A DNA stretch of 64,000 bases from Patescibacteria group bacterium (GCA_041649475.1 JBAZNA010000001.1:328612-392611); one strand, 5' to 3'; counted from the stretch's first letter, positions 6,333 to 35,176 are shown. The notes: generated by a model not told the origin, from the sequence alone. A program made the numbers and translations.

Positions 6333-9300
6333 ATGCCAGCCAAGTTTAAAAAAATATTTATAATTTTATCGGCAGTTGCGGTTATCGCCGGGGGTTTGTT
6401 TTGGTTTGCTCAAATTTCAAATGCCCAGCAAGGTCCTGATTTGGGACTGGCGCAGGTGAGTTCTACTATCGGTTTACCTACAACCGATATCAGAGTGATA
6501 GTGGCCAATATTATCAGAACGGCTCTGGGACTTTTGGGAATTGTGGCTTTGGTTTTAGTTCTTTATGGCGGTTATACCTGGATGACAGCCGGCGGCAACG
6601 AAGAAAAAATTGCTCAAGCCAAAAAGATTTTGGTTAATGCCGTTATCGGGCTGGCGATTATTTTATCTGCCTACGCGATTACCAGTTTTATAATCAGTTC
6701 ACTGCTTGGTGCCACCACCGGAACTCCCGCGCATTGTTTTGATGGCATTCAAAATGAGGGTGAAACGGCGGTTGATTGTGGCGGCGGCGGTTGCGGGCCT
6801 TGCACGGCTCCGAATAATCCGTATTTTACTTCCGGCGCTTTCTATATTACCGCTTTGCCTGCCGGCGGACAGGTTTGTATCAGGAATGTTAATCCGGCCA
6901 TTACCTTTAATATGGATGTGGACGCCGCATCATTGGCCGGAAGTGTAGTGCTGTTGGATAACAATAACAATGAACAGGCCGGAGTGTGGAGCGTGGTTGA
7001 TGGTAACACGGCCAAATTTACACCGGTCGGGGCCTGCGGCGCGCCCGATAACGGCAATGATTGTTTGCTCGCTTCCACTAACTACACTTTGCATTTTAAA
7101 AATGGCGGTGCCATCAAATCCGCTGACGGGCGGGCTATAAATTGCCTGGCCGGAGCCAAATGCACTGATGTACAATTTACAACCGGCGACGGCATTGACC
7201 GCACGCCGCCGACAGTGAAAATAGAAAATATTGCCGACGATAAACTGGTAACCGGCCAGGTGGTGCCGGTTAAAATCAGTTATACGGACGATAATGGCGT
7301 ACAAAAAATTGATTTGAAAGCGGATAATAACTATGTTGGCAGCGGCACAGTTTCCGGCTGTCAAAAAACCGGCAGTGTCACCATAAATTGGCCGACAGCC
7401 GGGTTATCAGATGGCGCGCACGGTCTTGATGCTAAGGGTTATGACTGGTCAATGCAAAGTGCTGTTGATCATTATGCCGCGATTTTAAAGCCGCCCCATT
7501 GTTTGAATAATATTTTAGACGGAAACGAAGATCAGGCCGGACCACTGGGCTGTTGCGCGCCGGAAAAAAATTGCGGTTGCGGCGGTTGCGGGGGTTCAAG
7601 TTGTACTCAAGATACTGATTGTGCCAGTGGTTATTGCAAAATACCACCAGGTCAAACTACGGGTGTTTGTGTTGACCGCATGCGGATTACCGGCGTATCG
7701 CCGGGATCCGGAGCGGTTGGCACTTATGTTTCCATTTCCGGAGAATATTTTGGCACTGCCAGGGGTCAGGTATATTTTACCGGTGCGAGCGGTTGGCTTG
7801 TAGCGCCTCTGGCCGATTGTGGGGCCGGTGCCTGGAAACCGTGGCAGGTTATTGCTACTGTTCCGCAAGGCGCCATAACCGGACCGATAAGATTGATTAC
7901 CGCTGATCAGCAGTTTGTGGATGTTACTAATGATAATGTCGTTGGGCCGCTTATTCCTGATTTTGTGGTAAATAATTTGGTGCGTCCGGGAATTTGTTCT
8001 CTGGATAAAACCAATGGTTTGCCCAGCGACAGCATTACCATTTCCGGTAAAAATTTCGGCGCCGTGCAACTGGCGAACAGCGCCGTTTCCTTCGGACAAC
8101 TGCAGGCCTTTATTAATGTCTGGGGAGATACCACTATTAAAACAAAAGTGCCAATGCTTTCTGCCGGTCCGGCGGCCGTCAAGGTTACTAAAGAAAACAT
8201 AGACAGTAACAGTGTCGCCTTTTTTGTTGGCGAGGGAATAAACAGTACCACGCCGACTATTACTAGTATCAGTCCTGATCACGGCGCAAAGGGTGAATAT
8301 CTGACCATAACCGGAAATAATTTTGGCGCAGAGCAGGGGAGGGTGTGGTTTAAAGTTAACAATAACGGCCAGCCGGCCAATGACCAAGACGCGATCAATG
8401 GTTCGTTTGATTTTCCGGCCGGTTGTAAAGATAATATCTGGAGCGACAGCAAAATTATTGTTAAATTTCCAGAGAGCGCCGGTCAGACCGGCCAAACATA
8501 TTTTGTACAAGTGAGGCCGTCTGAAATTGATAAGGGCTGGAGCCCGATCGGTCCAACCTTTAAACTGGAAACAGGCAATCCGGCGCCGGGCATTTGCGGA
8601 ATTTCGCCGGCTTCCGGTCCGGTACCTTTTGGCACCGGCGCAGATCCGATGAAAATTTATGGAGAATATTTTGGCGGAAGTCCGGATGTGTATTTTTGGA
8701 ATACCAACGCGGATGCGTCTACTATAACTGGTCGCATAAAGGCAGCTAACCCAAATATTTCCGGTTCTGACTTGAATGTTTTTCCTCCCAACAACACTCA
8801 AACCGGTCCGGTGGTAGTTTTTAGAAGTTCTGACAGTAAGATGAGCAACTCGGCGCTATTTACAGTTTCAAATTGTGTGCAAAATGGAAACAGTTGTTCG
8901 CAAGCGGGTTACCATTGCTGCGCGGCCGGGCCCGAAGCGGGGATGTGCAAAACCGATTTATGTATTGATGAAAAGATATCCGCCGGTTATATCTGGCGGT
9001 TTGCCACTCAACCTATACCTAAGGTGCCTCATTTAGTTGAAAGATGCGATAGCCAGTCGGATGCCGGTAAAAATGTTCCTTCGCCTTCGCCCAGCGTCCA
9101 ATGGGACACTAATGATAGTGGTGACCATCATAATGTCTGCCGCACCGCCTCCATTGTCTTGGATTTTAGCGTTGATAATATCAATCCGATTCCCAGAGGA
9201 GACATTCTGGTGAGTGAATGCGAGTCAAGCACGGTGAATGTGGCGAGCAGAACCTGCACCCAGCTAACGCCCCGCCCCAGCTTTTTGGGAAGCGGTGACT

Positions 9301-12300
9301 ATGTTGTTGAACATAGTACGCAATCAACCAATGATCTGGAATTGGACTTGAGTCAGGATTATAACAATAACACCGGTAAATGGAAAGATAATACCTGGTA
9401 TCAGGTGATTTTAAGCGCGGATATTTCTGCCGGTGCCGGCACTGCTCTGATGCATCTGGCCAAAGACGCGCCTTGTGATAGTGCGGGTATTACCAATACC
9501 GCTTATTGTTTCTTGTTTAAAACTGATGCTAAGGATTGCAAAATTAAAGCGGTAGCCATAACGCCTTACTCTTACTGGGCATCGGTCTTGGAAGCGCCGA
9601 TTAAATACCGGTCCAGTCCTTCTGATGAGGGTGTGGATCTTGTTTATAGCGGCCATATTTTAAGCGATCAGCATTGTATTTGGATGAACCCGGGCGGATT
9701 GAATTGGGATTGGAACGTGGCCAACCCTGATCCAAACCAGAAAAAATATGCTGACGTTTTTGCTTTAAAAGAAGATACGGTCGTACACAAAACCGATGCT
9801 TTAATTTCGGCTTTGGCCAATACCGTGGGAGTGGGGTTGGCAAATAATTCCGTGGATGTTGAGGCCACGGTTTCAACCGGCACTGTCAGCCATACCGGTT
9901 CAAGCCCACTCAAAATAGATTTAAATACTCCGGAAGTGGTTGACTATTGGCCAAAATGCAATGAGGCCTGCGCTAATGCCGAGGTTGGCGCCAAATTTAA
10001 TACCACCATGTCTGATTTAAATTTAGACAGCGGCGCCGTGCATTTGTATAAATGTTTGGATGAAAATTGCGCGCAGACCCAGCCGGTGGTCTTGCCGTCG
10101 GTTAGTTTTGAAAAAAATTCAAATCCGCCCTATACGCTTTTAGAAATAAATAATTACGGTTTGAACCATGTTGATCTTGAACCGAATACGATTTATGAAG
10201 TGGTTTTGTCAGCCAGCAGTTCTAATCCGAATTCACCGGATCAGCTGTGGTCGGCTTCCAGTTTGTTAACCGATAGAGATGCAGACGGCAACGTCATTGT
10301 TATTGGCCGTTCCGGCACCAGCAAACCATATAATAAACAATTTATTTGGAAATTCACAACCAAACAAACTTCGTGTGCCGTTGATCGTACCGAAGTTTTG
10401 CCCAGTGTCTTTACTGCCAGACAAAATAATGACCGGGCTGTGTTTAATGTTCAGCCATATTCAGCGCCTGATGCCTGCAGTGTCAAAGGCCAAAAATTGA
10501 ATCCCTGGTCAGAGAATTGGGTTTGGAGTTCGTCTGATGTAAACGCGGCCACAGTGGCAACATTTAGCACTCAAGGGTATAGCCCGTATTGCACATCAGA
10601 TTGCATCCGCAGAGGGAGCACACTTCCGGCGGGTAGCGATACGGTTCCGCTTTGCGGAAGCGGCGGCAACCCGCAAGCCGGCCAGGATTGCGTTTTTCCT
10701 GATAAAAATAATAATTGCAGTTTGAATTGCTTGTTTATAAACAAAACCAACACCGGCTCCGCCCAGTCGGCCGGCGCCACCAGCGTCAGTTCATCGGTTT
10801 GCGGAAACGGATTCTTGGGAACAGGGGAGGATTGCGACATCGGCATACCGGCCAACCCGCTTAGTCCGACTTCATCAATGTATTGTTCAAATAAATGCTT
10901 GCATTTGGGCGCCCCGCTTGCATCCAGCTGGTGCAATACTCATTTTACGGATTATGCCGGTTTGGGTTTTACAAAAACAGAATTTGAAGCTGCCTGCGCC
11001 AAGGCAATTAGCGTCTGCGGTGATAAGGTCTTAAGTCCGGACGAAGATCCGGGCTGTGACGGGTCAGGTGGTTGGGATCAAAATTTATGTAATCGTATTT
11101 GTTTGTTAAAATCAAACAACGCTCCGACTGACAATGCGCCGGCTAATAGTTGTTCCAACGGAGGTTGTAATTTGGATAATAAACATGCTGGTTCTTCGCT
11201 CCTATATTCCACGCCTTCAGTTTGCGGAGATAAGGCGGTGGGTATTGGTGAAGACGTTTCCTGTGAAAATAATAATTTTATAACCACCGATCACGTCGGT
11301 AAGACAGATCCGTGGGCCTTGGTTTTGGGCAAAGGGCTTTCAACCAATGTTGGCGGCACACCGCCGGCGCAAAGCTCCACCATTTCCGCAACGGCCAATG
11401 TTAGCGGCAAAAATATTGCGGGGCAGGGCCAATTTGTGATTCCCTGCGGATACAAGACGGATGCTGAATGTAAGAATGCTTTGGGGGATGACTATGGGCT
11501 CGGCGCCAATTCCTGCTGTTATAAAAAACCGGTCTTAACTAAAGTGTACCCCGGTACAACTTCCACTCCAATCGCGCAAAATGTTTGTCCGAACACAGTG
11601 ATTGAAGCGCAGTTCAGCAATTCAATTGATGCTAAAAGTTTACCCGGGAATTTATTAATTGCCCGCGGTATCGGCGAAAATTTTTCCACGAATTTGAATA
11701 TAGACAGCACGGTTGGGTTGAGCGGTTCAAGTCACGTTTTTGTCTCCGGCAATTATGCTTATGTGGCCAACAGTTTAAACGGCCTGAATGTAATCAACAT
11801 TTCCGATTCCAAACATCCATTGCCAATTTGGACACCGCTTAATACTGCCAATTATGCCGATGTTTATGTAATAGGGAAGTATGCTTATATTGTTGATCAG
11901 GGCGCGAATTCTTTAAAAATATTTGATATATCCAGTTCCACGAATCCAACGGTAGTGGGTTCTGTTGATTTGGTAAACATAACCAATCCCAACCGGATTG
12001 TCGTTTCCGGAAAGTTTGCTTATGTGATTAGCGCTAATGGTGGAAACATAATCAATGTCGCCAATCCAGCCGGTCCTACTTTTTCAACCAAGTTATCAAT
12101 CTCACCAAGACAAATCCAGCCGGCCGGAAACAATATTGCTTTGTTGGATAATAATAATTTTACGATAATGGATTTTTCCGACCCCGCCAATCCCAGGACA
12201 ATCGGTTCAGTCCAAGTCAATGATGCTCAAGATTTTAAAGTTTCCGGAAATTATGCCTTTTTAGCCGGCACCGGCGGTCTGCAAATTTTGGATATTTCCA

Positions 12301-14036
12301 ATCCGGCCAATCCGCACAGTGTGGCCGCTCTCACCGCAGGGTCCCTTAGTAGTATTAATGTTTATAATAGTTTGGTTTTTGCGACTGATGCTTCCGGAGC
12401 AATACACATCATAGATGTTTCCGATCCCGCCATTCCCAAGAATCTTGAGGTGTATACCGGATTGGTACACGCGGGTTATGTGTCGCAAAACATTGCGGTT
12501 AGCGGCAATTATGCCTATGCGGTCCATAGTAGCGGTTTGACCATAGTTGATGTTTCAAAATATACAAATAATTGCCCGGCCAATTCTGATGTCACGAATT
12601 TAATTGTTTTGAATAGTCCGAACGCCAATTTACCGTGGTATGAAAAGATTTGGACAAATATTGTGCAATTTGTAAAATCATTATTCGGATTTACAGCCAC
12701 GGCCCAAAGCAATACCCCGACTAAATGGTGCGCCGGCCTTGATTTGGGCACGCCCGCCATGTTATCAAGCAGTACCATAATGGTGAAACTACAAGCGCCT
12801 TTGGCTTTAGACACCAGTTATGCCATCATTTTAAAGCATGGTCTCAAAGACACAAATGGCGTCAGTATTGATACCAGCACTAATTGGAGATTTGTAACCG
12901 CGCCTAAGATTTGTCAGGTCAGTGGTGTTAGTGTGACTCCAAATGCAGTGGCTTTTGGCAGTGTGGGGCAGACCAGCACCCTAGAGGCCAAGGCCCTGGC
13001 GGCGAGTGGCGGTGAAATACAAATTATACCCGGATATTATGCCTGGGAATATGTTTGGGGTCCCAGCAGTAATGCCTTTGTTACTTTGACAAACACCACC
13101 TCATCGCTCAATATGATTACTGCCCAAAATCGGAATGGTGAACTTGATGTTTGGGCTTCCGCTAATATAACTGACAATAAATACACCAGCCAGACCGGCC
13201 CGGCGGCAACCGGCAAGTCGCACGTGATTGTTTTCCTGTGTGAAAATCCCTGGCCGCCGAAGAATTTATATTATAATAATCAGGGGCCGTTTATGATTTT
13301 CCCTTATGAAGATAAATTGGGGAATAATGATAATTATAATTTAACGGCCGATAGTTTTGATAATACGGCTCTGCCGGCATCTCCGTTTGGCGGATACTTC
13401 AATTTTAGAACTTATTATTGCGCGGATAACGGCGCGCCCGGAACGGCCGATGATTTGCCTTATATGCGCGCGGCCGTACAGGTTTCACCGACGATTGTGA
13501 GCGACGCCACTGCTTTTAAACGTTTCATATTTACCAGCGCCAAAAACAATGACGCCATTGGTATTCAGGTCTTTCCCAATACCCAGCACTTAACGGTTGA
13601 ACAGTGGTTCCAATATGGCAAGACCTATGGCGGTCAGGGATTTGTCACCGGCGGAAATATGCAGCCAACCACCATAGACGGTTATGACGCGCTTTCCGAC
13701 GGCAATAATATTTACGTTGACGCGCTCAATTACGCTACGACATCGCCGGTTTCGGGGAATTTATATACCAATGTATATCTCTTTAGTATAAACGCCGATG
13801 CCCGGCCCGAAACCAGGAAGGTCTTTGAACAAATGATTAACAATTGGCATTTTAATATTAATCTAACTAATTACAGACGCTGTGGCGTGGATGTGGAGAG
13901 TCCCGGCGACACTTCTTGTCAGACCGACCTTGATTGTTCAGGTGGACAGATTTGTTCCGCGCAAATTGATAAATTAAAACGCAATTATCAAAGATTGCGG
14001 GATTTAAATGAAATTCAAAAAGCATTAGGGCAATAA
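6333..14036 (+). CDS. giant (2567 aa) secreted surface protein with pilin-like N-domain, 4x IPT/TIG, Myxococcus-type Cys-rich repeats and an LVIVD beta-propeller
   Basis: Signal peptide plus the same two-helix N-domain. Four TIG-like units ('RITGVSPGSGAVGTYVSISGEYFG', 'ITISGKNFGA', 'LTITGNNFGA', 'MKIYGEYFGG'). 'VCGNGFLGTGEDCD' and 'CGDKVLSPDEDPGCDG' repeats. Repeated 'VSGNYAYV..(L/I).V.D(V/I)S.P..P' blades at ~nt 11700 to 12600. Confidence 0.8.
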   Translation: MPAKFKKIFIILSAVAVIAGGLFWFAQISNAQQGPDLGLAQVSSTIGLPTTDIRVIVANIIRTALGLLGIVALVLVLYGGYTWMTAGGNEEKIAQAKKILVNAVIGLAIILSAYAITSFIISSLLGATTGTPAHCFDGIQNEGETAVDCGGGGCGPCTAPNNPYFTSGAFYITALPAGGQVCIRNVNPAITFNMDVDAASLAGSVVLLDNNNNEQAGVWSVVDGNTAKFTPVGACGAPDNGNDCLLASTNYTLHFKNGGAIKSADGRAINCLAGAKCTDVQFTTGDGIDRTPPTVKIENIADDKLVTGQVVPVKISYTDDNGVQKIDLKADNNYVGSGTVSGCQKTGSVTINWPTAGLSDGAHGLDAKGYDWSMQSAVDHYAAILKPPHCLNNILDGNEDQAGPLGCCAPEKNCGCGGCGGSSCTQDTDCASGYCKIPPGQTTGVCVDRMRITGVSPGSGAVGTYVSISGEYFGTARGQVYFTGASGWLVAPLADCGAGAWKPWQVIATVPQGAITGPIRLITADQQFVDVTNDNVVGPLIPDFVVNNLVRPGICSLDKTNGLPSDSITISGKNFGAVQLANSAVSFGQLQAFINVWGDTTIKTKVPMLSAGPAAVKVTKENIDSNSVAFFVGEGINSTTPTITSISPDHGAKGEYLTITGNNFGAEQGRVWFKVNNNGQPANDQDAINGSFDFPAGCKDNIWSDSKIIVKFPESAGQTGQTYFVQVRPSEIDKGWSPIGPTFKLETGNPAPGICGISPASGPVPFGTGADPMKIYGEYFGGSPDVYFWNTNADASTITGRIKAANPNISGSDLNVFPPNNTQTGPVVVFRSSDSKMSNSALFTVSNCVQNGNSCSQAGYHCCAAGPEAGMCKTDLCIDEKISAGYIWRFATQPIPKVPHLVERCDSQSDAGKNVPSPSPSVQWDTNDSGDHHNVCRTASIVLDFSVDNINPIPRGDILVSECESSTVNVASRTCTQLTPRPSFLGSGDYVVEHSTQSTNDLELDLSQDYNNNTGKWKDNTWYQVILSADISAGAGTALMHLAKDAPCDSAGITNTAYCFLFKTDAKDCKIKAVAITPYSYWASVLEAPIKYRSSPSDEGVDLVYSGHILSDQHCIWMNPGGLNWDWNVANPDPNQKKYADVFALKEDTVVHKTDALISALANTVGVGLANNSVDVEATVSTGTVSHTGSSPLKIDLNTPEVVDYWPKCNEACANAEVGAKFNTTMSDLNLDSGAVHLYKCLDENCAQTQPVVLPSVSFEKNSNPPYTLLEINNYGLNHVDLEPNTIYEVVLSASSSNPNSPDQLWSASSLLTDRDADGNVIVIGRSGTSKPYNKQFIWKFTTKQTSCAVDRTEVLPSVFTARQNNDRAVFNVQPYSAPDACSVKGQKLNPWSENWVWSSSDVNAATVATFSTQGYSPYCTSDCIRRGSTLPAGSDTVPLCGSGGNPQAGQDCVFPDKNNNCSLNCLFINKTNTGSAQSAGATSVSSSVCGNGFLGTGEDCDIGIPANPLSPTSSMYCSNKCLHLGAPLASSWCNTHFTDYAGLGFTKTEFEAACAKAISVCGDKVLSPDEDPGCDGSGGWDQNLCNRICLLKSNNAPTDNAPANSCSNGGCNLDNKHAGSSLLYSTPSVCGDKAVGIGEDVSCENNNFITTDHVGKTDPWALVLGKGLSTNVGGTPPAQSSTISATANVSGKNIAGQGQFVIPCGYKTDAECKNALGDDYGLGANSCCYKKPVLTKVYPGTTSTPIAQNVCPNTVIEAQFSNSIDAKSLPGNLLIARGIGENFSTNLNIDSTVGLSGSSHVFVSGNYAYVANSLNGLNVINISDSKHPLPIWTPLNTANYADVYVIGKYAYIVDQGANSLKIFDISSSTNPTVVGSVDLVNITNPNRIVVSGKFAYVISANGGNIINVANPAGPTFSTKLSISPRQIQPAGNNIALLDNNNFTIMDFSDPANPRTIGSVQVNDAQDFKVSGNYAFLAGTGGLQILDISNPANPHSVAALTAGSLSSINVYNSLVFATDASGAIHIIDVSDPAIPKNLEVYTGLVHAGYVSQNIAVSGNYAYAVHSSGLTIVDVSKYTNNCPANSDVTNLIVLNSPNANLPWYEKIWTNIVQFVKSLFGFTATAQSNTPTKWCAGLDLGTPAMLSSSTIMVKLQAPLALDTSYAIILKHGLKDTNGVSIDTSTNWRFVTAPKICQVSGVSVTPNAVAFGSVGQTSTLEAKALAASGGEIQIIPGYYAWEYVWGPSSNAFVTLTNTTSSLNMITAQNRNGELDVWASANITDNKYTSQTGPAATGKSHVIVFLCENPWPPKNLYYNNQGPFMIFPYEDKLGNNDNYNLTADSFDNTALPASPFGGYFNFRTYYCADNGAPGTADDLPYMRAAVQVSPTIVSDATAFKRFIFTSAKNNDAIGIQVFPNTQHLTVEQWFQYGKTYGGQGFVTGGNMQPTTIDGYDALSDGNNIYVDALNYATTSPVSGNLYTNVYLFSINADARPETRKVFEQMINNWHFNINLTNYRRCGVDVESPGDTSCQTDLDCSGGQICSAQIDKLKRNYQRLRDLNEIQKALGQ

Positions 14037-14040
14037 TTGT

Positions 14041-17000
14041 ATGCGTAAAAAAGCAAGTTTGATTATAATGTTTCTGTTCATGGTGCCGCTTATAAAAGAA
14101 GGATCATTTTTAAGCGGACAGAGTTTGAGCGTTTGGCCGTCCTGGTCTGTTTTAGGCAACGCGGTTGGCGTAGCTTTACCGGTTGATCCGATTAATAAAC
14201 TGGCGCCGGCCGGCACCTGCGCTTCTTCAACCAATCATTTCTGCGTAAAGAACACTGATTGCCCGGCTATGATCGGCACAACCACGCCGGAGAGTTGTAT
14301 TTTGCACGATCCGGCCACTGGCTGGAGCACTGTTAATCGTCGGTTTAGCTTCGCTTGCTCCACTTCTTCTTATGCTTACAGATATATTGACATCTCCACC
14401 ACCACCTACAAAATTTTAGCGCATTTTGAAGATCCTTTTGGTAACAGCAACGCGATTGCCAATTGGAATGATAATTTTGTATATAAATTTGTCAGCACCA
14501 CTGAATCGCCAAATCATAGTTATATTGTAATAAGCCAGCAGTATGGCATATGCAATAATGATCAGGAGATATCAACCCTTCAGCAGGGTTCTTGCGGTGA
14601 CAAGGTCTTGAATCCGAACGAGCAGTGCGACCCGCCGGGAAGCATGAGATATAGCGCTTGTTCGCCGGACGCGATTCATCCTAACCAAATCAGAGTTGAT
14701 AAATGCGGCACGGACTGTAAGTGGTCAGTTGCGCCAACCTATATATTATGTTCGGCTTTAAGCAAATGCGGCAATGGCATTATAGAATCAGGAGAACAAT
14801 GTGATGATGGCCGGTTAAACGGAACCTATAATCATTGCAATACAAGTTGTACGGGAAAAGTTGCCCCTTATAGTTCACATAACCCAAACGGATCCCCGGG
14901 TTATTGCGGTGATGGCGTTTCGCCAAACTATATAGTAAATCCAAAATATGAGGTCTGTGATAAGGGCGGAGTTGATTTTTGGGCGTTGCAAAGAGCGAAT
15001 TCCTGCAGTTGGAACTGCCAAGGGTATGGGCCTTATTGCGGCGATGGTGTTAAAAACGGTTCGGAAGAATGCGACGGTAACCAGCCATGTACGGCAAGCG
15101 GAAAAAATGGAACGATAGTGTGCGATAACACCTGTCATATAGTTTATCCGACCCAACAACCGGCCGTGGCAAATGATTTTGCCTTGTGGACTTTTGATAA
15201 CACAGACATGAATGGATCCACAATTATAGATAAAAGCGGAAACGGTCAGGATGCGATGGCTTATGGCACCTATTCAATTGTAAACGGCCATTCCGGACAG
15301 GCCATACAATTTGATGGACAAACAGCATTTGTTTCCAGCACCGTTATGAATTTTTATAAATATTTTTCAGCTGATTTTTGGATGAAGATCAACCAAACGG
15401 ATAATAATTGGCGAATGATTATGGCTGAAAATAATTGGAACGCGGGTCTGGGTTGGATGATGTATACAAGTCAGGGTTCTGCTAGCGGCAAAGCCAATTT
15501 TACCTATATGCGGTCTGGATATTCCGGAGTTGCCGTTGCTGATGCGTTTGATGTTGGTGTTTGGCAGCATGTTAAGGTTGTAAACAACAATGGCTCCGCA
15601 AAGGTGTATGTTAATGATATTTTAAAAGGCAGCGGTGCGGTTAGTATAAGCAATGCCGGTAATAACCTGCTTGTGGGAGCCGGCCATAATAATGATGGAA
15701 CCGGTGCTTCAGGTTATTTTAATGGAATAATAGACGAAGTTCATATAGCTAATAGTTCCACTACGCCACTGCTCCAATCATGCACTGTCGCGGTCAGTCA
15801 AGAGCCCACCAGTACTCCCGGGGCCTGTGGTGATGGACACGTAGATGCCAGTGAGGCCTGTGACAAGGGAGCGAATAATGGTAAGCCCTGTACGCCCGGA
15901 TACGATAAGGCCTGTTCTTACTGTTCGGCCGATTGCCAGAATGTGATTGATGTCCAGCCCACTGCTTATTGCGGCAATGGCCTGATAGAAGGAACAGAAG
16001 TTTGCGACACTGATCCTGGTAATGGAGATATTTATGTTTCCAGCACGGTATTTTGTACGCCGACAAATGAAGGCGGTCATGGCGGCGGTTTGACCTGCAA
16101 TTATCCTGATATTCTTAAATATACCTTTCAAAATCCGGTAACCGGACACGGTGGGCTCAAAGTTGTGAAGGATTGTGAAAGCGAAACTGCAAATGCGAAC
16201 ACCGTTAAAAAAGGTATTAAGGCCTGTGTTAATAATTGTAAAGCGGTGAAATTGACGACTGGAGAGGATCAATGCATAGCCTGCGGTTTAGATCCGGTAA
16301 ATGGCGTTGAAGTGGGTGGTTATGTGCTTAATGCGATTGATCCACTTTCAGGAAATCCGCTGATGGGAGTCGGTGGGCATACTGGTAGCCAGACCAAACT
16401 GGAGCTTTATTTGGGAACAAAGAAAGATTTTTCCTTCTCTCCCATTACTGCTACTAAAGTTACCGGCTATTGCGCGGCCAATACGTTCTATAAAAATTAT
16501 TCATTTTCAAGTTCCGTTCATCCTGACGCTTGTAATAACACCAGAGGGCTGTTAAATCCAAATCCGATTTGTTCCACCGGAAAAACCAGTTATAAGCTGA
16601 TTGTTAATGATGGTACTACTCATGTTTTTCCATTTTCAGTTATATCTGATCCGCTTGAAAAACAACCTTGGAGAAATGACTTACTGTTATCGCCGATGAT
16701 ACCACAACCCAGTCATATCAGGGTGGTGGTCAGCTGGGTCGGCGACGGAGAATTTTATAGCGGATTTTTAGACCCAGCCCAAACCAGCGATCCGATTATT
16801 GAGGGGTCTAAGTTTGTGACCGGCGATTATGTTGACCAGACTGTGGTTTACAATTATTCCACAGGTAAGGATTATTATACCCAAACTGATTCGGATCATA
16901 AAAAATTAGGTATTTGGTATCATGGCTTTGGCGATACTCCTAATTTGTTAAAAGAGGAGTCGTTTACAGTTGATACTGCAAATATGGATTCCGGTAATTA

Positions 17001-17841
17001 TGTTTTTTATGTCAGATCCGGAGGTCCGATTAAGCCATATCAGGTTTCGGCAAATTTGAAAGTGGAGGTTTATTTGCCGGAAGGTGATACTAATTATCGC
17101 CATTTCGGTTTGCCGGCGGCAACTTATTATTTAAGCGGCGCCTTGCCGTCTGATAGTCCGGCCGCGAGTTATTGGCAGGTCTTTAATATCGTTGATTCAA
17201 ACGGCACCGTGACCTTAGCGGATAATATCCTGGACGTTAATTCAATTGTTTCTGCCCCAAGATACTTTATTTATTCAACTTCTTGTATTGGCCGGGCCGG
17301 AAGATTATGCCGGGCATCGGCCGGACCTTGCGACACTGCCGAATATTGTGTGGCCGGAAATGATGTTTGTCCGGAAGATTCTTTTAGATCGGCCACGGCT
17401 TATTGTTATGACAATCTGGCTAGCAAACCGTGTTACAGCGGGGCCACCTGCAGTGGTTATTCTGCAGATTGTCCGCAAAGCACATATAAAGCGGCTGGTT
17501 TAACATGCACGGGCTTTGTGGTTGACAGTGAATGTGAGAATCCAGCAACCTGCAATGGAACCTCTTATGAATGTACCGGTAGTTTAACCTTAAAACCAGA
17601 CGGCACCTCATGCGGAAATGTGTGTAATAACAATGTTTGTCAGGGCGGATCCTGCAGAGCTGGCACCCCGACCAACTGTGCCAGCAGTAACCCCTGTAAA
17701 AATCCGGTTTGTGATCCTCTGATTGGTTGTACCTATAAACCAATAGGATCTCCTTGCAGTACTACTTCAGGTTCCGGTACTTGTCAGTTTCATTTGGGAG
17801 GTGGAGATCAGATTACATGTAAATATACCATCATCTACTAA
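14041..17841 (+). CDS. secreted 1266 aa Cys-rich protein with Myxococcus-type CGDG/ECD repeats, a LamG_3/concanavalin-like lectin domain and a Cys-rich C-terminal module
   Basis: Signal peptide. Repeats 'YCGDGVKNGSEECDGN', 'KCGNGIIESGEQCDDGRLNG', 'ACGDGHVDASEACDKG' and 'YCGNGLIEGTEVCDTD'. LamG_3-like region ending 'GIIDEVHIANSSTTP' (compare 'DEVRIYNRALS'). C-terminal ~200 aa with more than 30 Cys. Confidence 0.75.
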   Translation: MRKKASLIIMFLFMVPLIKEGSFLSGQSLSVWPSWSVLGNAVGVALPVDPINKLAPAGTCASSTNHFCVKNTDCPAMIGTTTPESCILHDPATGWSTVNRRFSFACSTSSYAYRYIDISTTTYKILAHFEDPFGNSNAIANWNDNFVYKFVSTTESPNHSYIVISQQYGICNNDQEISTLQQGSCGDKVLNPNEQCDPPGSMRYSACSPDAIHPNQIRVDKCGTDCKWSVAPTYILCSALSKCGNGIIESGEQCDDGRLNGTYNHCNTSCTGKVAPYSSHNPNGSPGYCGDGVSPNYIVNPKYEVCDKGGVDFWALQRANSCSWNCQGYGPYCGDGVKNGSEECDGNQPCTASGKNGTIVCDNTCHIVYPTQQPAVANDFALWTFDNTDMNGSTIIDKSGNGQDAMAYGTYSIVNGHSGQAIQFDGQTAFVSSTVMNFYKYFSADFWMKINQTDNNWRMIMAENNWNAGLGWMMYTSQGSASGKANFTYMRSGYSGVAVADAFDVGVWQHVKVVNNNGSAKVYVNDILKGSGAVSISNAGNNLLVGAGHNNDGTGASGYFNGIIDEVHIANSSTTPLLQSCTVAVSQEPTSTPGACGDGHVDASEACDKGANNGKPCTPGYDKACSYCSADCQNVIDVQPTAYCGNGLIEGTEVCDTDPGNGDIYVSSTVFCTPTNEGGHGGGLTCNYPDILKYTFQNPVTGHGGLKVVKDCESETANANTVKKGIKACVNNCKAVKLTTGEDQCIACGLDPVNGVEVGGYVLNAIDPLSGNPLMGVGGHTGSQTKLELYLGTKKDFSFSPITATKVTGYCAANTFYKNYSFSSSVHPDACNNTRGLLNPNPICSTGKTSYKLIVNDGTTHVFPFSVISDPLEKQPWRNDLLLSPMIPQPSHIRVVVSWVGDGEFYSGFLDPAQTSDPIIEGSKFVTGDYVDQTVVYNYSTGKDYYTQTDSDHKKLGIWYHGFGDTPNLLKEESFTVDTANMDSGNYVFYVRSGGPIKPYQVSANLKVEVYLPEGDTNYRHFGLPAATYYLSGALPSDSPAASYWQVFNIVDSNGTVTLADNILDVNSIVSAPRYFIYSTSCIGRAGRLCRASAGPCDTAEYCVAGNDVCPEDSFRSATAYCYDNLASKPCYSGATCSGYSADCPQSTYKAAGLTCTGFVVDSECENPATCNGTSYECTGSLTLKPDGTSCGNVCNNNVCQGGSCRAGTPTNCASSNPCKNPVCDPLIGCTYKPIGSPCSTTSGSGTCQFHLGGGDQITCKYTIIY

Positions 17842-30297: not shown

Positions 30298-31509
30298 ATG
30301 CGCGTTCTCCAAGTCAATAAATTTTTTTACCGAAGAGGCGGAGCGGAAGTGGTTTTTTTTGATACCATAAACGGCTTGCGCGAGCGCGGTCACGAGGTGA
30401 TAGAATTTTCCATGCAGGGCAGCCGTAATTTACCGTCTGATTATTCGGCCTACTTTTCTCCGGAAATTCCGGAGTTTACCTCCAAACAAAGTTTGGGGTC
30501 GGATTGGGTAACCTTTAAAAACATTTTTCATTCAAACGCAGTGGAAAATAAACTGCGGACTTTGATTTCCGCCACCGAACCGGAGGTGGCGCACTTGCAC
30601 AATGTCACCCGGCAATTATCAGCCAGCATATTTTTTACTTTGAAAAAGGCCGGCGTGCCGATTGTGCTCACCGTTCATGATGTCCAGCCCATGTGTCCGA
30701 ACCACCGCATGCTTCGCAATCACACTGTCTGTGAGAAATGTTTTAAACACAAATATTATAATTGCACGCGCTACAATTGTATAAACGGTTCCAAGGCGCA
30801 GAGTTTGGCCGGATCACTTGAGGCCTATTACTATTATTTAAAAGGCATTTGGCATTTTGTGGATGCTTTTGTTTGTCCCAGCCAGTTTATGCTGGATAAA
30901 ATGGTAAAGTGGGGGTTCCCGGCAAAAAAAATGCATCTGGTGCGCAATCCGTATGCCGTGACAGCCAAAGATACAACCTTGGGCGATAAGGTTGTTTATA
31001 TGGGCCGTTTGCATGAGGAAAAGGGAATAAATATTTTTTTGGAGGCCTTAAAAGATTTGAAAAATTATCAAGTTATCATTGCCGGCACCGGTCCGGAAGA
31101 AGAAAATGTGGAAAAATTTATCAGACAAAACGGACTAACCAATGTTTTAAGGGTGGGCTGGGTTGGCGGCGAGAAATGGCAGGCAATAATGAACGAAGCT
31201 AAAGTAATAGCGGTGCCGTCGTTGTTTTATGAAAATTGTTCAATCTCAATTTTGGAAGCTCTGGGCAATGGCAAGCTGGTGGTCGCGTCAGACCGCGGCG
31301 GCAACAATGAACTCATAATAAACAATCAAACCGGTTTTTTGGCCGAGCCGGAAAATCCAAAGTCATTGGCCGAAGCAATCAGGAAGGCCATGCAACTGCG
31401 CGGGCCGGAAGCTGGCAAGCTAATCGCGAATGCCAAAAATTTACTGGAGCAAAATCATGATCCCGCCGGATATTGCCACGCCTTAGAAGAAATTTACGCG
31501 GCTCTATAA
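30298..31509 (+). CDS. glycosyltransferase family 4 (GT-B fold)
   Basis: C-terminal 'E...GNGKLVVASDRGGNNELI' EX7E-type motif. Confidence 0.7.
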   Translation: MRVLQVNKFFYRRGGAEVVFFDTINGLRERGHEVIEFSMQGSRNLPSDYSAYFSPEIPEFTSKQSLGSDWVTFKNIFHSNAVENKLRTLISATEPEVAHLHNVTRQLSASIFFTLKKAGVPIVLTVHDVQPMCPNHRMLRNHTVCEKCFKHKYYNCTRYNCINGSKAQSLAGSLEAYYYYLKGIWHFVDAFVCPSQFMLDKMVKWGFPAKKMHLVRNPYAVTAKDTTLGDKVVYMGRLHEEKGINIFLEALKDLKNYQVIIAGTGPEEENVEKFIRQNGLTNVLRVGWVGGEKWQAIMNEAKVIAVPSLFYENCSISILEALGNGKLVVASDRGGNNELIINNQTGFLAEPENPKSLAEAIRKAMQLRGPEAGKLIANAKNLLEQNHDPAGYCHALEEIYAAL

Positions 31510-31510
31510 T

Positions 31511-32716
31511 TTACGCTACCTTATAACTTTTTTTAACTTCGGTTTTTTTCGGCAACGAGTATAGATCGCCGGTCTTTAGGGCGATATCCTGCCAATTATA
31601 TTTTAAATTGGTGGTTTGTTTGTTTAACAACCCCGTATTTTTTAGCAATTGCTCATCACTCATCAGTTCAACAATTTTATTGGCCAGAGACATAGTGTTG
31701 GCATTGGCAAACCAAAAACGGCCGTCAGTAATAACTTCTTTATGTTCAGGAATATCTGAAACTAAAACCGGCTTGCCATAAGACATGGCTTGTAAAACGG
31801 TTATAGGCATACCTTCATTTTCCGAAGGGTGAATGAATAATTTTGCGTTGGCGTATAATTCGGATAAATTTTGTCCGCTCTGCCAATCAGTGAAAATAAT
31901 GCTATTATCTCCGCGGGCCATGGTGTGTAATTTTTTAACATAATCATCCGTAAAAGAAGCCCCACCCACAATTACCAGTTTGTAATCTTTCAAAATTTCC
32001 GGATTTTGCTGTTTGGCGAACTGCCAGGCGTCAATCAAAAAATGTGCGCCTTTGTGTTTGACCAAACGGGAGACCATCAAAACGTATTTGTTGGTTTCCA
32101 AATTCCATTGATCAATCACGGCCGGTGATTTGGAAACCTGGCCGGTGATGCCGTTGGGAATGTAGGTAGTTATTGTCTGATATTCGTTTAAGCAGTAATT
32201 TTGAATAGTTTTAGAAACCGCAATGGCTTCGTGCGCAAAACGGCAGGCAGACCATTCACCCAGGTGAAGCATCAGGCGCGCGAACAGCCCCCATTTTTGA
32301 TGGTATCTGTCAAGACAATGAATAGTAGCAACCACTTTTATTTTAGGGGCGAAAATTCTTGGTAGCCAGCAAAGCAAAGACGGGCCGACTCCGTGGAAGT
32401 GAATAACATCCGGTTTTTGCCACATAGCATGAATTGCGGATGTGAAAGTATTGGAAATAGCATCAAGATGTTTGGAATGAAATGCCGGGGTGTGGATAAT
32501 TTTAATGCCGTCAAAATTCTTAATATTTGGCGAGGTATACCATTTTCTGGCGTAAACAGACACAGAGTGGCCTTGTTTAACCAATTCTAAAGCCAGCTCC
32601 TCAACATGGCGCTCAATGCCGCCGTATTTGGCCGGAATGCCTTTTTGTCCAATCATGGCTATTTTCATATCGTTTTTAAAACATTCAATCATAGCAGATT
32701 TTGGGATTTTTGTCAA
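31511..32716 (-). CDS. glycosyltransferase family 4
   Basis: 'KIAMIGQKGIPAKYGGIERHVEELA' N-domain and 'EGMPITVLQAMSYGKPVLVSDIPEHKEV' C-domain. Confidence 0.7.
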   Translation of the reverse strand: MTKIPKSAMIECFKNDMKIAMIGQKGIPAKYGGIERHVEELALELVKQGHSVSVYARKWYTSPNIKNFDGIKIIHTPAFHSKHLDAISNTFTSAIHAMWQKPDVIHFHGVGPSLLCWLPRIFAPKIKVVATIHCLDRYHQKWGLFARLMLHLGEWSACRFAHEAIAVSKTIQNYCLNEYQTITTYIPNGITGQVSKSPAVIDQWNLETNKYVLMVSRLVKHKGAHFLIDAWQFAKQQNPEILKDYKLVIVGGASFTDDYVKKLHTMARGDNSIIFTDWQSGQNLSELYANAKLFIHPSENEGMPITVLQAMSYGKPVLVSDIPEHKEVITDGRFWFANANTMSLANKIVELMSDEQLLKNTGLLNKQTTNLKYNWQDIALKTGDLYSLPKKTEVKKSYKVA

Positions 32717-32741
32717 TAGTTGGGCTAATTTGAGCCGGCTC

Positions 32742-32770
32742 TTGACGTACAGTTATAAAATTGTTATAAT
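32742..32770 (+). promoter_or_regulatory. sigma-70 consensus-like promoter driving the GC-rich mini-operon
   Basis: TTGACG, 17 nt spacer, TATAAT. Followed by AGGAGG (32792 to 32797) 8 nt before the ATG. Confidence 0.45.
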
Positions 32771-32805
32771 TTAGCATCGCTATTTACTCACAGGAGGGAA
32801 AAAGG

Positions 32806-33003
32806 ATGAGCCAGAGCAGAGGTGTCCACAGGGGACCGCGCCGGCGCATGATCTACGATTCGCCGCAGTACAGCAATCCCATGACTGCCTTCGGTCAGCC
32901 CGCCACCGCACCCGCGAAGACGGTTGTGGTCAGAAGGGGGCCGTCTCCGCAGGCAGTACTGCGGTACCGGAAGAACCGGCAGTTCCGCCGGCTGCAGGGC
33001 TAG
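32806..33003 (+). CDS. 65 aa Arg-rich small protein in a GC-rich island (hypothetical)
   Basis: Complete ORF with a strong SD. 'RGVHRGPRRRMIYDSPQYSNP...RYRKNRQFRRLQG'. The composition is very different from flanking genes. Confidence 0.35.
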   Translation: MSQSRGVHRGPRRRMIYDSPQYSNPMTAFGQPATAPAKTVVVRRGPSPQAVLRYRKNRQFRRLQG

Positions 33004-33011
33004 GTGTCGCC

Positions 33012-33095
33012 ATGATCACCACTGCTGCGGTTGTTGGAGGCATCGCTAGCGCAGTGGTGATCATTTTCGCCGTGCGCAAGCTCTTCCCATCCTAG
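33012..33095 (+). CDS. 27 aa hydrophobic mini-peptide (MITTAAVVGGIASAVVIIFAVRKLFPS)
   Basis: ATG 9 nt after the previous stop. Single TM-like helix with a basic tail. Directly followed by a strong terminator. Confidence 0.25.
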   Translation: MITTAAVVGGIASAVVIIFAVRKLFPS

Positions 33096-33126
33096 AGGGA
33101 ATCACCAAGAGAAAGAACCCTCTTCC

Positions 33127-33168
33127 GGGTGCCCGACGCGACTCTACGTCGGGCACCCACACTTTTTT
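33127..33168 (+). terminator. strong rho-independent terminator
   Basis: 12 bp GC stem 'gggtgcccgacg'/'cgtcgggcaccc', then 'acac' and TTTTTT. Confidence 0.7.
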
Positions 33169-33234
33169 CTAAACAATTGTGGAGTTATCAATTTAATGGT
33201 AGAATAATAACGCTTTAAGGCGTTTTTTGTTTTA

Positions 33235-34146
33235 TTGTATATGTGGCTTACCGTAGCCCTGCTCGGTTTTACAATCTCGGCAATAGTCGGTATTTTGGAC
33301 AAATTCATTATTTCTAAATCAGAAGTCCGGCCGATTGTTTTTACCTTTTATTCTTCCATTTTTGTTTTGCCAATTTTATTGCTTCTGCCGTTTGGAGTGG
33401 CGTTTCCTTCTCGTGCCATTGATTGGCTGATTTTTGTGGTAGCCGGTTTTGGTTTTGCCCTTGGTTTGTGGGTGATGTATCTTGGTTTTAAAAAAAGCGA
33501 GATTAGCCATATCGGGCCCCTGGTCGGGGCCGCTACCGCCTTTTTTGTTTTGATTTTGAGCAATCTTTTTTTACCTGAAAATTTGGGTGTTTATAAACTC
33601 ATAGCCATTTTTGTTTTAATTATCGGTTCGCTGGTTATTTCTTTTGAATACAGTCCGGAGCATAACGGCCTGCATACAGGTATGCTTCTGGGAATAATTT
33701 CCGGGTTGCTGTTTGCAATTTCGCACGTGGCTTCCAAGTATGCTTATGATGTTTACGGGTTTTACAGCGGCTTTGTCTGGACGCGAAGTTTTTTGGGCGT
33801 GTTCGGAATTTTGTTGTTGGCCTTTCCCGGCGTGCGTGCGCTTTTTTATAAAAAGAAAACCGGAGCGGTCGTTAAGGAGGTTAAACAAACCGTATTGGTA
33901 TGCTGGGATAAAATTTTGGGCGTCTTTGGTTTGGTTTTAATTCAGTACGCGATCGCTTTGGGAAGCGTGACTTTGGTAAACGCCTTGGCCGGCGTACAGT
34001 TTGCCATTTTGATTATTTTTGTTGCCTTGCTGTCAAAATTTTTTCCCAAGATTTTCAAAGAGGAGTATATGGGCAGGGAAATTATTCAGGAATTTTTTGC
34101 CGTTGTTCTCATTGCCGGCGGTTTGGCATTAATGCTCATAAAATAG
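33235..34146 (+). CDS. 10-TM membrane protein, EamA/DMT-superfamily-like transporter
   Basis: Two ~140 aa halves, each with 5 hydrophobic helices. No catalytic motifs. Confidence 0.45.
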   Translation: MYMWLTVALLGFTISAIVGILDKFIISKSEVRPIVFTFYSSIFVLPILLLLPFGVAFPSRAIDWLIFVVAGFGFALGLWVMYLGFKKSEISHIGPLVGAATAFFVLILSNLFLPENLGVYKLIAIFVLIIGSLVISFEYSPEHNGLHTGMLLGIISGLLFAISHVASKYAYDVYGFYSGFVWTRSFLGVFGILLLAFPGVRALFYKKKTGAVVKEVKQTVLVCWDKILGVFGLVLIQYAIALGSVTLVNALAGVQFAILIIFVALLSKFFPKIFKEEYMGREIIQEFFAVVLIAGGLALMLIK

Positions 34147-34153
34147 CAAATAT

Positions 34154-35176
34154 ATGTTGGCAAAACATGCACGGACATTAAAAATAATCATTATTACTTT
34201 ATTAATCATCGGAGTCGGTTTGTTTTTGATTTTTTTATCAGCTTTTTTATCCGATAAAGCGCGCCAGCCGGGCAATGTTATTTATGGCGTGACTTATGAT
34301 CCGGCGTATGCGCAGTATCTGGGGCTGGACGGACGGGCGTCTTTTATAAGAATGCTTGATGATTTTAAATTTAAATATATCCGGCTCACCGCCCATTGGG
34401 ATATGGTGGAGGCGGTTGCCGGAAAAAAAGATTTTACTGAACTTGATTGGATGATGAGCGAGGCGCAAAAAAGAAACGCAAAAATAATTTTGGTGGTTGG
34501 CCAAAAAACACCCCGGTGGCCGGAGTGTCATATTCCGGGCTGGGCGGCTAAACTGCCTCTTGATAAATATAGGAACAAATTGGAAGGTTATATAGACGCC
34601 ACTGTTAATCATTTTAAAAACAGTCCGGCTTTGGAAATTTGGCAGGTTGAAAATGAACCGTTTTTGGCATTTGGCGCAAAATGTCCGAAATTTACGGACA
34701 AAAATTTAGCCGATGAGTTAAAATTGGTAAAGAGTTTAGATCCCAACCATCTAACCATGACCACAGATGCCGGAGAGTTAAGTTTGTGGACTCATACTGC
34801 CGACAAAGCCGATCTTTTCGGGTTTACGGTTTATCGAGTGGTATGGGATGAAAATATTGGCTATTGGACTTATGATTATATTCTGCCGACAGCCGGTTAC
34901 CGTCTGCGACTGGCCGCCAATGACAGAAATATTGATACTGCTTATGCCGTGGAATTGCAGGCCGAACCATGGATACCGTTTGGAACGCTTTCTTCTACTC
35001 CTTTAAAAGAACAATTTAAATCAATGGATTTAAGCCGATTAAAAGACAATATCAATTTCACCGACAAAATTGGTGTGTCCAGAGCATATTTGTGGGGGGC
35101 GGAATGGTGGCTGTGGCTGGAAAAACAGGGTGATAACAGTTTTGTTGAGTATGTGAGAACTTTGCGGAAGGAATAG
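34154..35176 (+). CDS. membrane-anchored glycoside hydrolase (TIM-barrel clan GH-A, GH5-like)
   Basis: N-terminal TM, 'WQVENEPF' (catalytic acid/base NEP box), and a second conserved Glu region 'VELQAEPW'. Confidence 0.45.
   Translation: MLAKHARTLKIIIITLLIIGVGLFLIFLSAFLSDKARQPGNVIYGVTYDPAYAQYLGLDGRASFIRMLDDFKFKYIRLTAHWDMVEAVAGKKDFTELDWMMSEAQKRNAKIILVVGQKTPRWPECHIPGWAAKLPLDKYRNKLEGYIDATVNHFKNSPALEIWQVENEPFLAFGAKCPKFTDKNLADELKLVKSLDPNHLTMTTDAGELSLWTHTADKADLFGFTVYRVVWDENIGYWTYDYILPTAGYRLRLAANDRNIDTAYAVELQAEPWIPFGTLSSTPLKEQFKSMDLSRLKDNINFTDKIGVSRAYLWGAEWWLWLEKQGDNSFVEYVRTLRKE

Follow-up and report, generated by a model that had tools for sequence, protein, structure and literature searches.

The window analysed here, a stretch of 64,000 nucleotides (nt) from a Patescibacteria group bacterium (GCA_041649475.1 JBAZNA010000001.1:328612-392611), carries at positions 32742-33168 a compact, GC-rich transcription unit with two short open reading frames, ORF1 and ORF2. 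The unit sits between a gene for a GT4 glycosyltransferase on the minus strand and a gene for an EamA transporter on the plus strand. It is real and it is not ordinary: very probably two protein-coding genes form a genuine and conserved unit which is under selection at the RNA level, for GC content as well as for structure. Its function is putative only, and the coupled, structure-gated, hok/mok-like mechanism put forward below is a tentative reading, somewhat short of probable.

Architecture and coding capacity of the unit

The features of the unit are listed below; promoter and terminator were found by consensus scan.

32742-32770, plus strand: promoter, TTGACG (32742-32747), 17 nt, TATAAT (32765-32770), with TG at 32762-32763
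32777-32805, plus strand: short 5' untranslated region (UTR) with the Shine-Dalgarno sequence (SD) AGGAGG at 32792-32797, 8 nt ahead of the ATG at 32806
32803-32817, plus strand: 5' strand of a predicted long-range pairing, AGGAUGAGCCAGAGC, which takes in the ORF1 start codon (partner probabilities 0.90-0.99)
32806-33003, plus strand: ORF1, 65 amino acids (aa), 12 of them arginine, net charge about +13
33012-33095, plus strand: ORF2, a single-pass hydrophobic peptide of 27 aa, MITTAAVVGGIASAVVIIFAVRKLFPS
33012-33064, plus strand: perfect 14-bp hairpin (100% complementary repeat), ATGATCACCACTGC (33012-33025) with GCAGTGGTGATCAT (33051-33064), loop of 25 nt
33080-33093, plus strand: 3' strand of the predicted long-range pairing, GCUCUUCCCAUCCU, made of the last ORF2 codons and the first base of the stop codon
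33094-33126, plus strand: 3' UTR hairpin AGAGGG...CCCTCT, followed by a CU-rich, anti-SD-like box, CCCTCTTCC
33127-33168, plus strand: intrinsic terminator, GGGTGCCCGACG and CGTCGGGCACCC forming 12 bp around an 8-nt loop, then ACACTTTTTT

A preliminary description of this DNA, made by eye, had singled the segment out as far richer in GC than its surroundings, and the calculation bore this out. GC content was 0.64-0.65 in 200-nt windows at 32800-33099, against 0.36-0.48 in the flanks, rising from 0.39-0.49 on one side and going back down to 0.36-0.43 on the other. In windows of 150 nt, positions 32771-33170 formed the highest and longest GC island of the whole 64 kb (0.61-0.67, with a peak of 0.67), for a mean of 0.441 and a standard deviation of 0.061. 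Even the 16S rRNA gene, at 0.62, stayed below that peak.

The promoter matched 11 of 12 consensus positions, displayed an extended -10 element (TGT ahead of TATAAT) and was joint first in score of all sites detected in 31500-34500; transcription probably starts near 32777. In the terminator, ten of the twelve stem pairs (33127-33158) were G-C and ACACTTTTTT followed directly 3'. The hexamer AGGAGG occurred six times on the plus strand of the window, the other five copies all lying inside ORFs, and only two of the 38 long ORFs checked displayed an SD, partial at best. The SD of the unit, partly covered by a small local hairpin (CUC/GAG), is thus the only well-placed one of its neighbourhood, although the 3' end of the 16S rRNA does carry CCUCC. 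Promoter, SD spacing, terminator and both frames were all found as the preliminary description had them, strong SDs did prove rare, and the view of a self-contained transcription unit was strengthened by relatives which keep promoter, SD and terminator alike.

ORF2 begins 8 nt past the ORF1 stop, with a weak SD-like AGGTG read by eye 5 nt upstream of its ATG. Its mean Kyte-Doolittle hydropathy is 1.69, and its counterparts in the related loci L002 and L005 are 32 and 28 aa long; these peptides of 27-32 aa form a single helix with a basic C-terminal end. For ORF1, AlphaFold run on the single sequence gave a disordered stretch (residues 1-47) followed by a confident basic helix (residues 48-63), with predicted local distance difference test (pLDDT) values of 87-95.

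Three lines of evidence bear on whether these frames are translated. First, GC content at the three codon positions of ORF1 (GC1, GC2 and GC3) was strongly periodic in the window and in three related loci:

Window: GC1 0.62, GC2 0.57, GC3 0.80; chi-square periodicity p 0.013
L002: GC1 0.57, GC2 0.38, GC3 0.90; p 5e-8
L003: GC1 0.60, GC2 0.50, GC3 0.87; p 4e-5
L005: GC1 0.60, GC2 0.57, GC3 0.88; p 5e-6

Ordinary genes of the window averaged 0.48, 0.40 and 0.46 at the same positions, with a highest GC3 of at most 0.54, so that the codon usage check proposed earlier set ORF1 clearly apart (GC3 0.80 against a host mean of 0.46). ORF2 was periodic too, with p=0.003 in L002 and p=0.0007 in L005. Second, an ATG-started transmembrane ORF of 27-32 codons begins 8 nt (window), 5 nt (L002) or 1 nt (L005) past the ORF1 stop, an arrangement reached in none of 5000 dinucleotide shuffles of each of the three. 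Third, the ORF1 proteins of the window and L002 are collinear (26% identity, E 0.007 in a single comparison), and the C-terminal helix of the former aligns with QVLRH in the latter.

Taken together, codon-position periodicity, the conserved abutting transmembrane ORF and the collinearity of ORF1 establish both frames as protein-coding. Public gene calls for L002 and L005 depart from these frames, with predicted products of 50 aa and, from another reading frame, 73 aa; the window's ORF2 is missing from the gene calls. Of the two possibilities offered earlier, a pair of small proteins was thereby favoured by the periodicity and by the tightly abutting transmembrane ORF. A structured non-coding RNA with spurious ORFs was not, since the ORFs bear coding signatures and no Rfam family matched even at E<=10.

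The unit and its slot in relatives

Synteny was kept in the contigs with the closest EamA proteins, namely L002 (83% identity), L003 and L004 (71%) and L005 (66%). In each of them the gap between the GT4 and EamA genes, referred to here as the slot, spans 590-820 nt and includes a GC-rich island of 0.65-0.75. Flanking proteins are 66-84% identical in these relatives with a GC-rich unit in the same slot. The promoter pattern TTGAC-17-TGnTATAAT was retained in L002, L003 and L005. In the relatives' units an AGGAGG-type SD lies 7-9 nt ahead of the ATG, the ORF it leads comprises 58-96 codons, and the terminator is GC-rich.

Other parts are shared more unevenly. The window and L002 have their 5' UTR and SD in common (CAGGAGGGAAAAA is identical in both) and their alignment, which extends over the full length, is weak (nhmmer E 1e-4 to 2e-5). 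ORF2 together with the terminator core is common to the window, L002 and L005, to which the transmembrane type of ORF2 was confined among the loci compared. The terminator core alone, CCGACG-loop-CGTCGG, also extends to L112 and L115. As window, L002, L003 and L005 share different parts (5' UTR, leader, ORF2, terminator core), the family of the window type appears small and mosaic. The leader in question is a stretch of ~150 nt between promoter and SD, common to L003 (3464-3621) and L005 (1424-1570; nhmmer E 2e-13) and absent from the window and L002. It opens with a long terminator-like hairpin, AAUCGCUUGGCCUG...CAGGCUGRGCGAUUUUG, and its conservation ends just before the start codon.

Divergence within the unit was compared with that of its neighbours. 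Between the window and L002, nucleotide identity was 77% for EamA, 80% for GT4 and 55% for EamA third codon positions, and it was 61% with many gaps for ORF1 and 69% for ORF2; ORF1 would thus seem to drift at roughly the synonymous rate. In every lineage ORF1 was nevertheless open, SD-led and GC-rich (0.61-0.68, with third positions at 0.8-0.9). Its GC content appears to be actively maintained, because an unselected segment at such divergence would have relaxed to the 0.44 of the host. GC3 lies far above GC2, which suggests that selection acts mainly on synonymous sites, the amino-acid composition staying hydrophilic. An ORF1 which remains open and GC-rich despite drift is what would be expected of a frame that needs to be translated rather than of one whose product is conserved.

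A wider survey of the slot relied on 72 Patescibacteria loci retrieved through EamA. Many of them displayed a GC island (0.6-0.8) 200-600 nt upstream of EamA, and these islands hold differing SD-led small ORFs, including Zn-ribbon-like proteins; one ORF family is common to L012, L017, L030, L033, L035 and L036. L115 encodes an SD-led two-transmembrane protein of 83 aa with ordinary GC content and the same terminator core as the window, and L106, one of the more distant EamA relatives (L105-L109), has only moderately GC-rich genes upstream of EamA. Within that distant set, no GC island was found upstream of EamA in L108 and L109; the L105 locus covers about 220 nt upstream of EamA, and L107 lay outside the GC profiling. 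The slot thus looks like a hypervariable, modular expression site.

In nine of these loci, all from Magasanikbacteria (L012, L017, L025, L027, L030, L033, L035, L036 and L038), the slot unit is closed by a 12-bp helix between its 5' and 3' ends. The 5' box reads AGAGUAGYGYGY and the 3' box RCGCRCUACUCU, with an invariant CCA after the latter; the two strands lie 300-560 nt apart, as for instance in L036 (2357-2368 with 2873-2884). All 108 of the 108 cells are standard pairs, and two pairs have changed on both sides (UA in five loci and CG in four; CG in seven, UA in one and UG in one). The G.U wobbles are consistent with plus-strand RNA only, and the observed score was reached in none of 500 shuffles. 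The 3' strand belongs to an invariant 32-nt core, after which comes an AT-rich hairpin that displays compensatory changes in L027. The motif had no Rfam match, and neither the 5' box nor the 3' core is present in the window. End-to-end closure of ORF-bearing RNAs is therewith supported by covariation in the nine relatives and, for the window type, predicted only.

Several further observations concern the slot. Directly upstream of the EamA start, L017 (2861-2969), L025 (2869-2966) and L035 (2865-2968) share a motif of ~105 nt (nhmmer E 1e-15 to 1e-16) without Rfam match, a candidate cis-regulatory RNA for the transporter. Short contigs break at or inside the slot in L111 (1-50), L006 and L031, which may reflect strain-level variability disrupting assembly. 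A Cys-containing family of ~100-135 aa with GC3 of 0.87-0.93 was found in L044 (575-982), L054 (1818-2168), L056 (1462-1827) and L058 (1601-1897), in genomes with a GC content of 0.46-0.57. In L056 the gene lies upstream of a 280-aa gene, FolD-like by eye, and not directly beside EamA, so that GC3-rich small genes would extend beyond one slot.

Two further leads were dropped. By eye, ORF1 of the window had been likened to the 'cluster A' ORFs of the same slot ('AVxGxGKQ..ALxxLPP' in L012, L017 and L036), and hhalign gave this a probability of 0.06%. The metagenome pattern TCGCTNTTTN{5,35}CAGGAGGGAAAAA returned 27 matches, none with a GC island downstream, and these are attributed to chance.

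RNA structure, proposed mechanism and alternatives

The folded sequences were the inferred transcripts, ~390 nt long in the window. Minimum free energy (MFE) z-scores against dinucleotide shuffles of the plus strand were -5.2 for the window, -3.3 for L002, -8.4 for L003 and -4.7 for L005, in line with the earlier impression of a strongly structured segment. When protein and codon usage were held fixed, 5 (window), 18 (L002), 2 (L003) and 19 (L005) of 120 synonymous-codon shuffles reached the native fold, an excess which is weak in each lineage and has the same direction in all four.

The 5' arm of the 14-bp hairpin starts exactly at the ORF2 AUG, whose predicted pairing probability was 0.85-1.0 in the window, 0.6 in L002 and 0.94 in L005. 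The ORF1 start (AGGAUG) was predicted to pair with CAUCCU at the ORF2 end (p 0.97 in the window), and L002 displayed an analogous predicted pairing of GAGAUGAGC with GCUCAUUCUC (p about 0.8). This 5'-3' pairing is a prediction only, favoured by two conserved features, a purine-rich 5' end and a CU-rich 3' box; the latter also precedes the terminator in L002 and L005 (CUCCUUCUC and CCCUCUCCC).

In the mechanism favoured here, the strong extended -10 promoter would yield a transcript of ~390 nt ending at the strong intrinsic terminator. ORF1, basic and largely disordered, would be initiated from the sole good SD of the neighbourhood. ORF2, with its one transmembrane helix, would start 8 nt past the ORF1 stop from an AUG buried in the 14-bp hairpin, and most likely it would be translated only once a ribosome finishing ORF1 opens that hairpin, that is, by termination-reinitiation coupling. 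The ORF1 start region would itself be masked through its predicted pairing with the ORF2 end, and overall folding may keep both starts masked. ORF1 may count mainly through being translated, which fits its near-neutral drift. Coupling and masking are both inferred from layout and predicted folding. ORF2 might have a toxic or membrane-active role, the toxic one being less probable than the coupled mechanism itself.

A number of observations weigh against this reading. L003 and L004 retain a GC-rich, SD-led ORF without ORF2, so frames of the ORF1 type can persist alone, and just three or four members of the family were found. In the closest relative, L111 (GT4 89% identical), the contig ends 50 nt upstream of GT4, short of the element. 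The 5'-3' duplex was no stronger than with dinucleotide-shuffled 3' segments in the four lineages (P = 0.10, 0.18, 0.64 and 0.06, the window accounting for 0.10), the pairing partner of the ORF2 AUG varies between lineages, and most bases of a GC-rich RNA are paired anyway. A consensus scan of the minus strand in or next to 32777-33250 found no antisense promoter or antitoxin RNA, although a weak or non-sigma-70 promoter could escape it. Finally, GC2 well below GC3 points to some constraint on the composition of ORF1, whose product may therefore matter.

This last point leads to the best surviving alternative, namely that ORF1 encodes the functional product, a small, basic and mostly disordered protein whose C-terminus would form an amphipathic helix, for instance a nucleic-acid- or ribosome-binding factor. 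ORF2 would then be accessory or lineage-specific, and GC richness and structure would only tune stability and expression of the mRNA. An SD-led ORF1 is indeed the sole feature shared by all four lineages, L003 with its missing ORF2 among them; besides the constraint on composition implied by GC3 far above GC2, the C-terminal helix is confidently predicted and aligns with L002. We consider this alternative unlikely, as ORF1 diverges near the neutral rate, it is acidic in L003 as opposed to a charge of +13 in the window, and no homologue or domain emerged from any database searched. In searches of 5.8 billion protein clusters and of 1.84 billion representatives scanned with HMMER, ORF1 matched only itself and one low-complexity sequence (E 1e-4). 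Pfam, PHROGs, NCBIfam, PADLOC and PDB gave no relevant match. A likeness to ribosomal protein L34 at the C-terminal end of ORF1 was dropped for want of a Pfam match.

It is quite unlikely that the structured RNA itself, or a dual-function RNA, is what matters, the frames being tolerated or secondary. Such a role would agree with the strongly negative z-scores of all four lineages, with GC content kept despite sequence turnover, with the L003/L005 leader, conserved where the ORFs are not, and with the nine more distant relatives, whose closing helix displays compensatory changes and plus-strand-only G.U pairs and whose invariant 32-nt core outlasts the ORFs. Those conserved boxes are, however, absent from the window, and helices of the window type comprise too few sequences for covariation support. 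Codon periodicity and the conserved transmembrane ORF speak for selection at the level of translation. Rfam gave nothing at its gathering threshold for the window and, at E<=10 in 32650-33300, chance-level matches alone; the homologous units of L002, L003 and L005 had no match either, and ARAGORN detected no tmRNA. Matches to known RNA or protein families, which the preliminary description had proposed to look for, thus did not materialise, yet relatives do hold such a unit in this slot.

The weakest alternative, and a very unlikely one, is a cassette acquired horizontally from a GC-rich donor into a recombination hotspot, without settled function here: GC3 (0.80 against 0.46), GC content (0.61-0.67 against 0.44) and SD use are all atypical for the host, slot content is mosaic among relatives (Zn-ribbon proteins, two-transmembrane proteins, unrelated small ORFs) and hhalign found window-type ORF1 unrelated to the cluster A ORFs, but promoter, SD, terminator and ORF2 recur in relatives with 66-84% identity in the flanking proteins, the promoter signals are AT-rich and of the host type, and an unselected insert would by now have drifted to host GC. 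The earlier suggestion of a foreign insert, if taken to mean a recent acquisition, likewise found no support, since GC-rich units with the same promoter or terminator occupy this slot in relatives too. No mobility gene such as an integrase or transposase was found near the unit; no donor homologue emerged from the protein searches, and blastn against phages gave no match. Nor did the window contain a second copy or template repeat of the unit, and nothing therefore pointed to a target of a diversity-generating retroelement.

Beyond the coupled two-gene unit favoured here, a more general proposal is that the slot holds a new class of small-protein mRNA cassettes, strongly promoted, SD-led and GC-maintained, with paired ends and with a coding content whose turnover or exchange outpaces that of the flanks by far. 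We regard it as improbable; if true, it would amount to a diversifying system, of the small-effector or addiction kind, which is peculiar to these episymbiotic bacteria. In an extreme version, which is speculation, the cassettes might be adapted to translation conditions which differ from those of ordinary genes, for instance in a GC-rich host cell, since SD-dependent initiation and GC3-rich codons are both lacking in the bacterium's own genes.

Genomic setting and comparison with known systems

The flanking EamA/DMT transporter and GT4 glycosyltransferase had their best relatives in Patescibacteria, and the genome loci retrieved through EamA belonged mostly to Candidatus Magasanikbacteria; the source organism is a bacterium of this group. 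Genes are ordered as methyltransferase, GT4, GT4, unit, EamA, glycosyl-hydrolase-like gene, tRNA-Val and amino-acid permease. The GT4 gene next to the unit has its own promoter at 32716-32688 (minus strand). EamA also displays a promoter-like site of its own (TGnTAGAAT) and, in its 5' UTR (window 33196-33240), a small hairpin at 33209-33224, followed by a U-run just ahead of the ATG with no SD there; a hairpin is found at this place in L002 and L003 as well, with differing stem sequences. The strong terminator at 33127-33168 and the separate promoter-like site that follows speak against a role of the unit as a cis-regulatory leader or riboswitch of EamA.

Elsewhere in the window, SDs were almost absent across the 38 long ORFs, and several ATGs were preceded within a few bases by a -10-like box (for example at 20918, 54320 and 56550), a combination which suggests leaderless or SD-independent initiation in the source lineage. 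Positions 1-1804 hold the 16S rRNA gene followed by tRNA-Val(GAC) and tRNA-Ile(GAT); with no 23S rRNA gene found over the other 62 kb, the rRNA genes of this genome are apparently not linked. A tandem pair of very large ORFs (2567 and 1266 aa, plus strand) occupies 6333-17841.

Patescibacteria genomes are small and rich in unannotated short genes. Demonstrable coding, excess RNA structure and a GC3 of 0.8-0.9 in an SD-free genome with a GC3 of 0.46 point to strong RNA-level selection on a small-protein gene, and the same combination points to structure-gated translation in the source lineage, from which no type I toxin-like system is known to us. The slot offers a compact natural experiment, with fast cassette turnover beside conserved envelope genes, and it also holds a covariation-supported 5'-3' closing helix as well as two conserved RNA-like motifs absent from Rfam.

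One comparison is with the closed units of the nine relatives. They share with the unit their slot between GT4 and EamA and their orientation, an SD-led ORF and elevated GC, and they likewise end in a CU-rich, CUCUCCA-like 3' box and a terminator ahead of the EamA promoter. They differ by a 5' box and a 3' core not present in the window, by unrelated ORFs and by the lack of a transmembrane ORF2.

KdpF, AcrZ and MgtS are small single-pass membrane regulators encoded next to transporters. ORF2 resembles them as a one-helix peptide of 27-32 aa with a basic C-terminal end, encoded beside the EamA transporter. In contrast to them, it belongs to a transcription unit apart, closed by a strong terminator ahead of EamA, which has its own promoter, and the peptide is absent from most relatives which retain EamA.

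SgrS/SgrT, RNAIII/delta-haemolysin and SR1/SR1P are dual-function small RNAs which encode small proteins. The unit is similar in being a stand-alone, highly structured and abundant-looking transcript that encodes a very small protein; it differs in having two cistrons, no Rfam match and no known base-pairing target or seed region.

The preliminary description had also called ORF2 type-I-toxin-like. Peptide and mRNA layout fit this part of the proposal; no antisense promoter was found to complete it. From hok/mok/Sok the unit further differs in that ORF1 abuts ORF2 without overlapping it, in that no Pfam or NCBIfam toxin model and no relevant PADLOC entry matched, and in that one lineage (L003/L004) lacks the membrane peptide. 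The unit was not filed as a type I toxin-antitoxin system on these grounds, namely the missing antisense promoter, the lack of family similarity and the absence of ORF2 from L003/L004. We know of no hok locus with an extreme, maintained GC3.

The likeness to hok/mok mRNAs thus concerns layout, a translated upstream frame followed by a putatively structure-gated membrane peptide. In hok/mok mRNAs, a leader frame is required for toxin translation, the SD is sequestered and the 5' and 3' ends fold back on each other (PMC9841398); the general scheme of such type I toxin mRNAs has been described (PMC11228461). Like hok/mok/Sok, and like aapA/IsoA of H. pylori, the unit would be transcribed as ~400 nt with its own promoter and terminator, and a small hydrophobic peptide is encoded after a longer translated frame which ends at or overlaps its start. 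As in those systems, the upstream frame is poorly constrained in sequence and the starts are predicted to be buried in mRNA structure, here with a predicted pairing between the 5' start and the 3' end (PMC9841398, PMC11228461).

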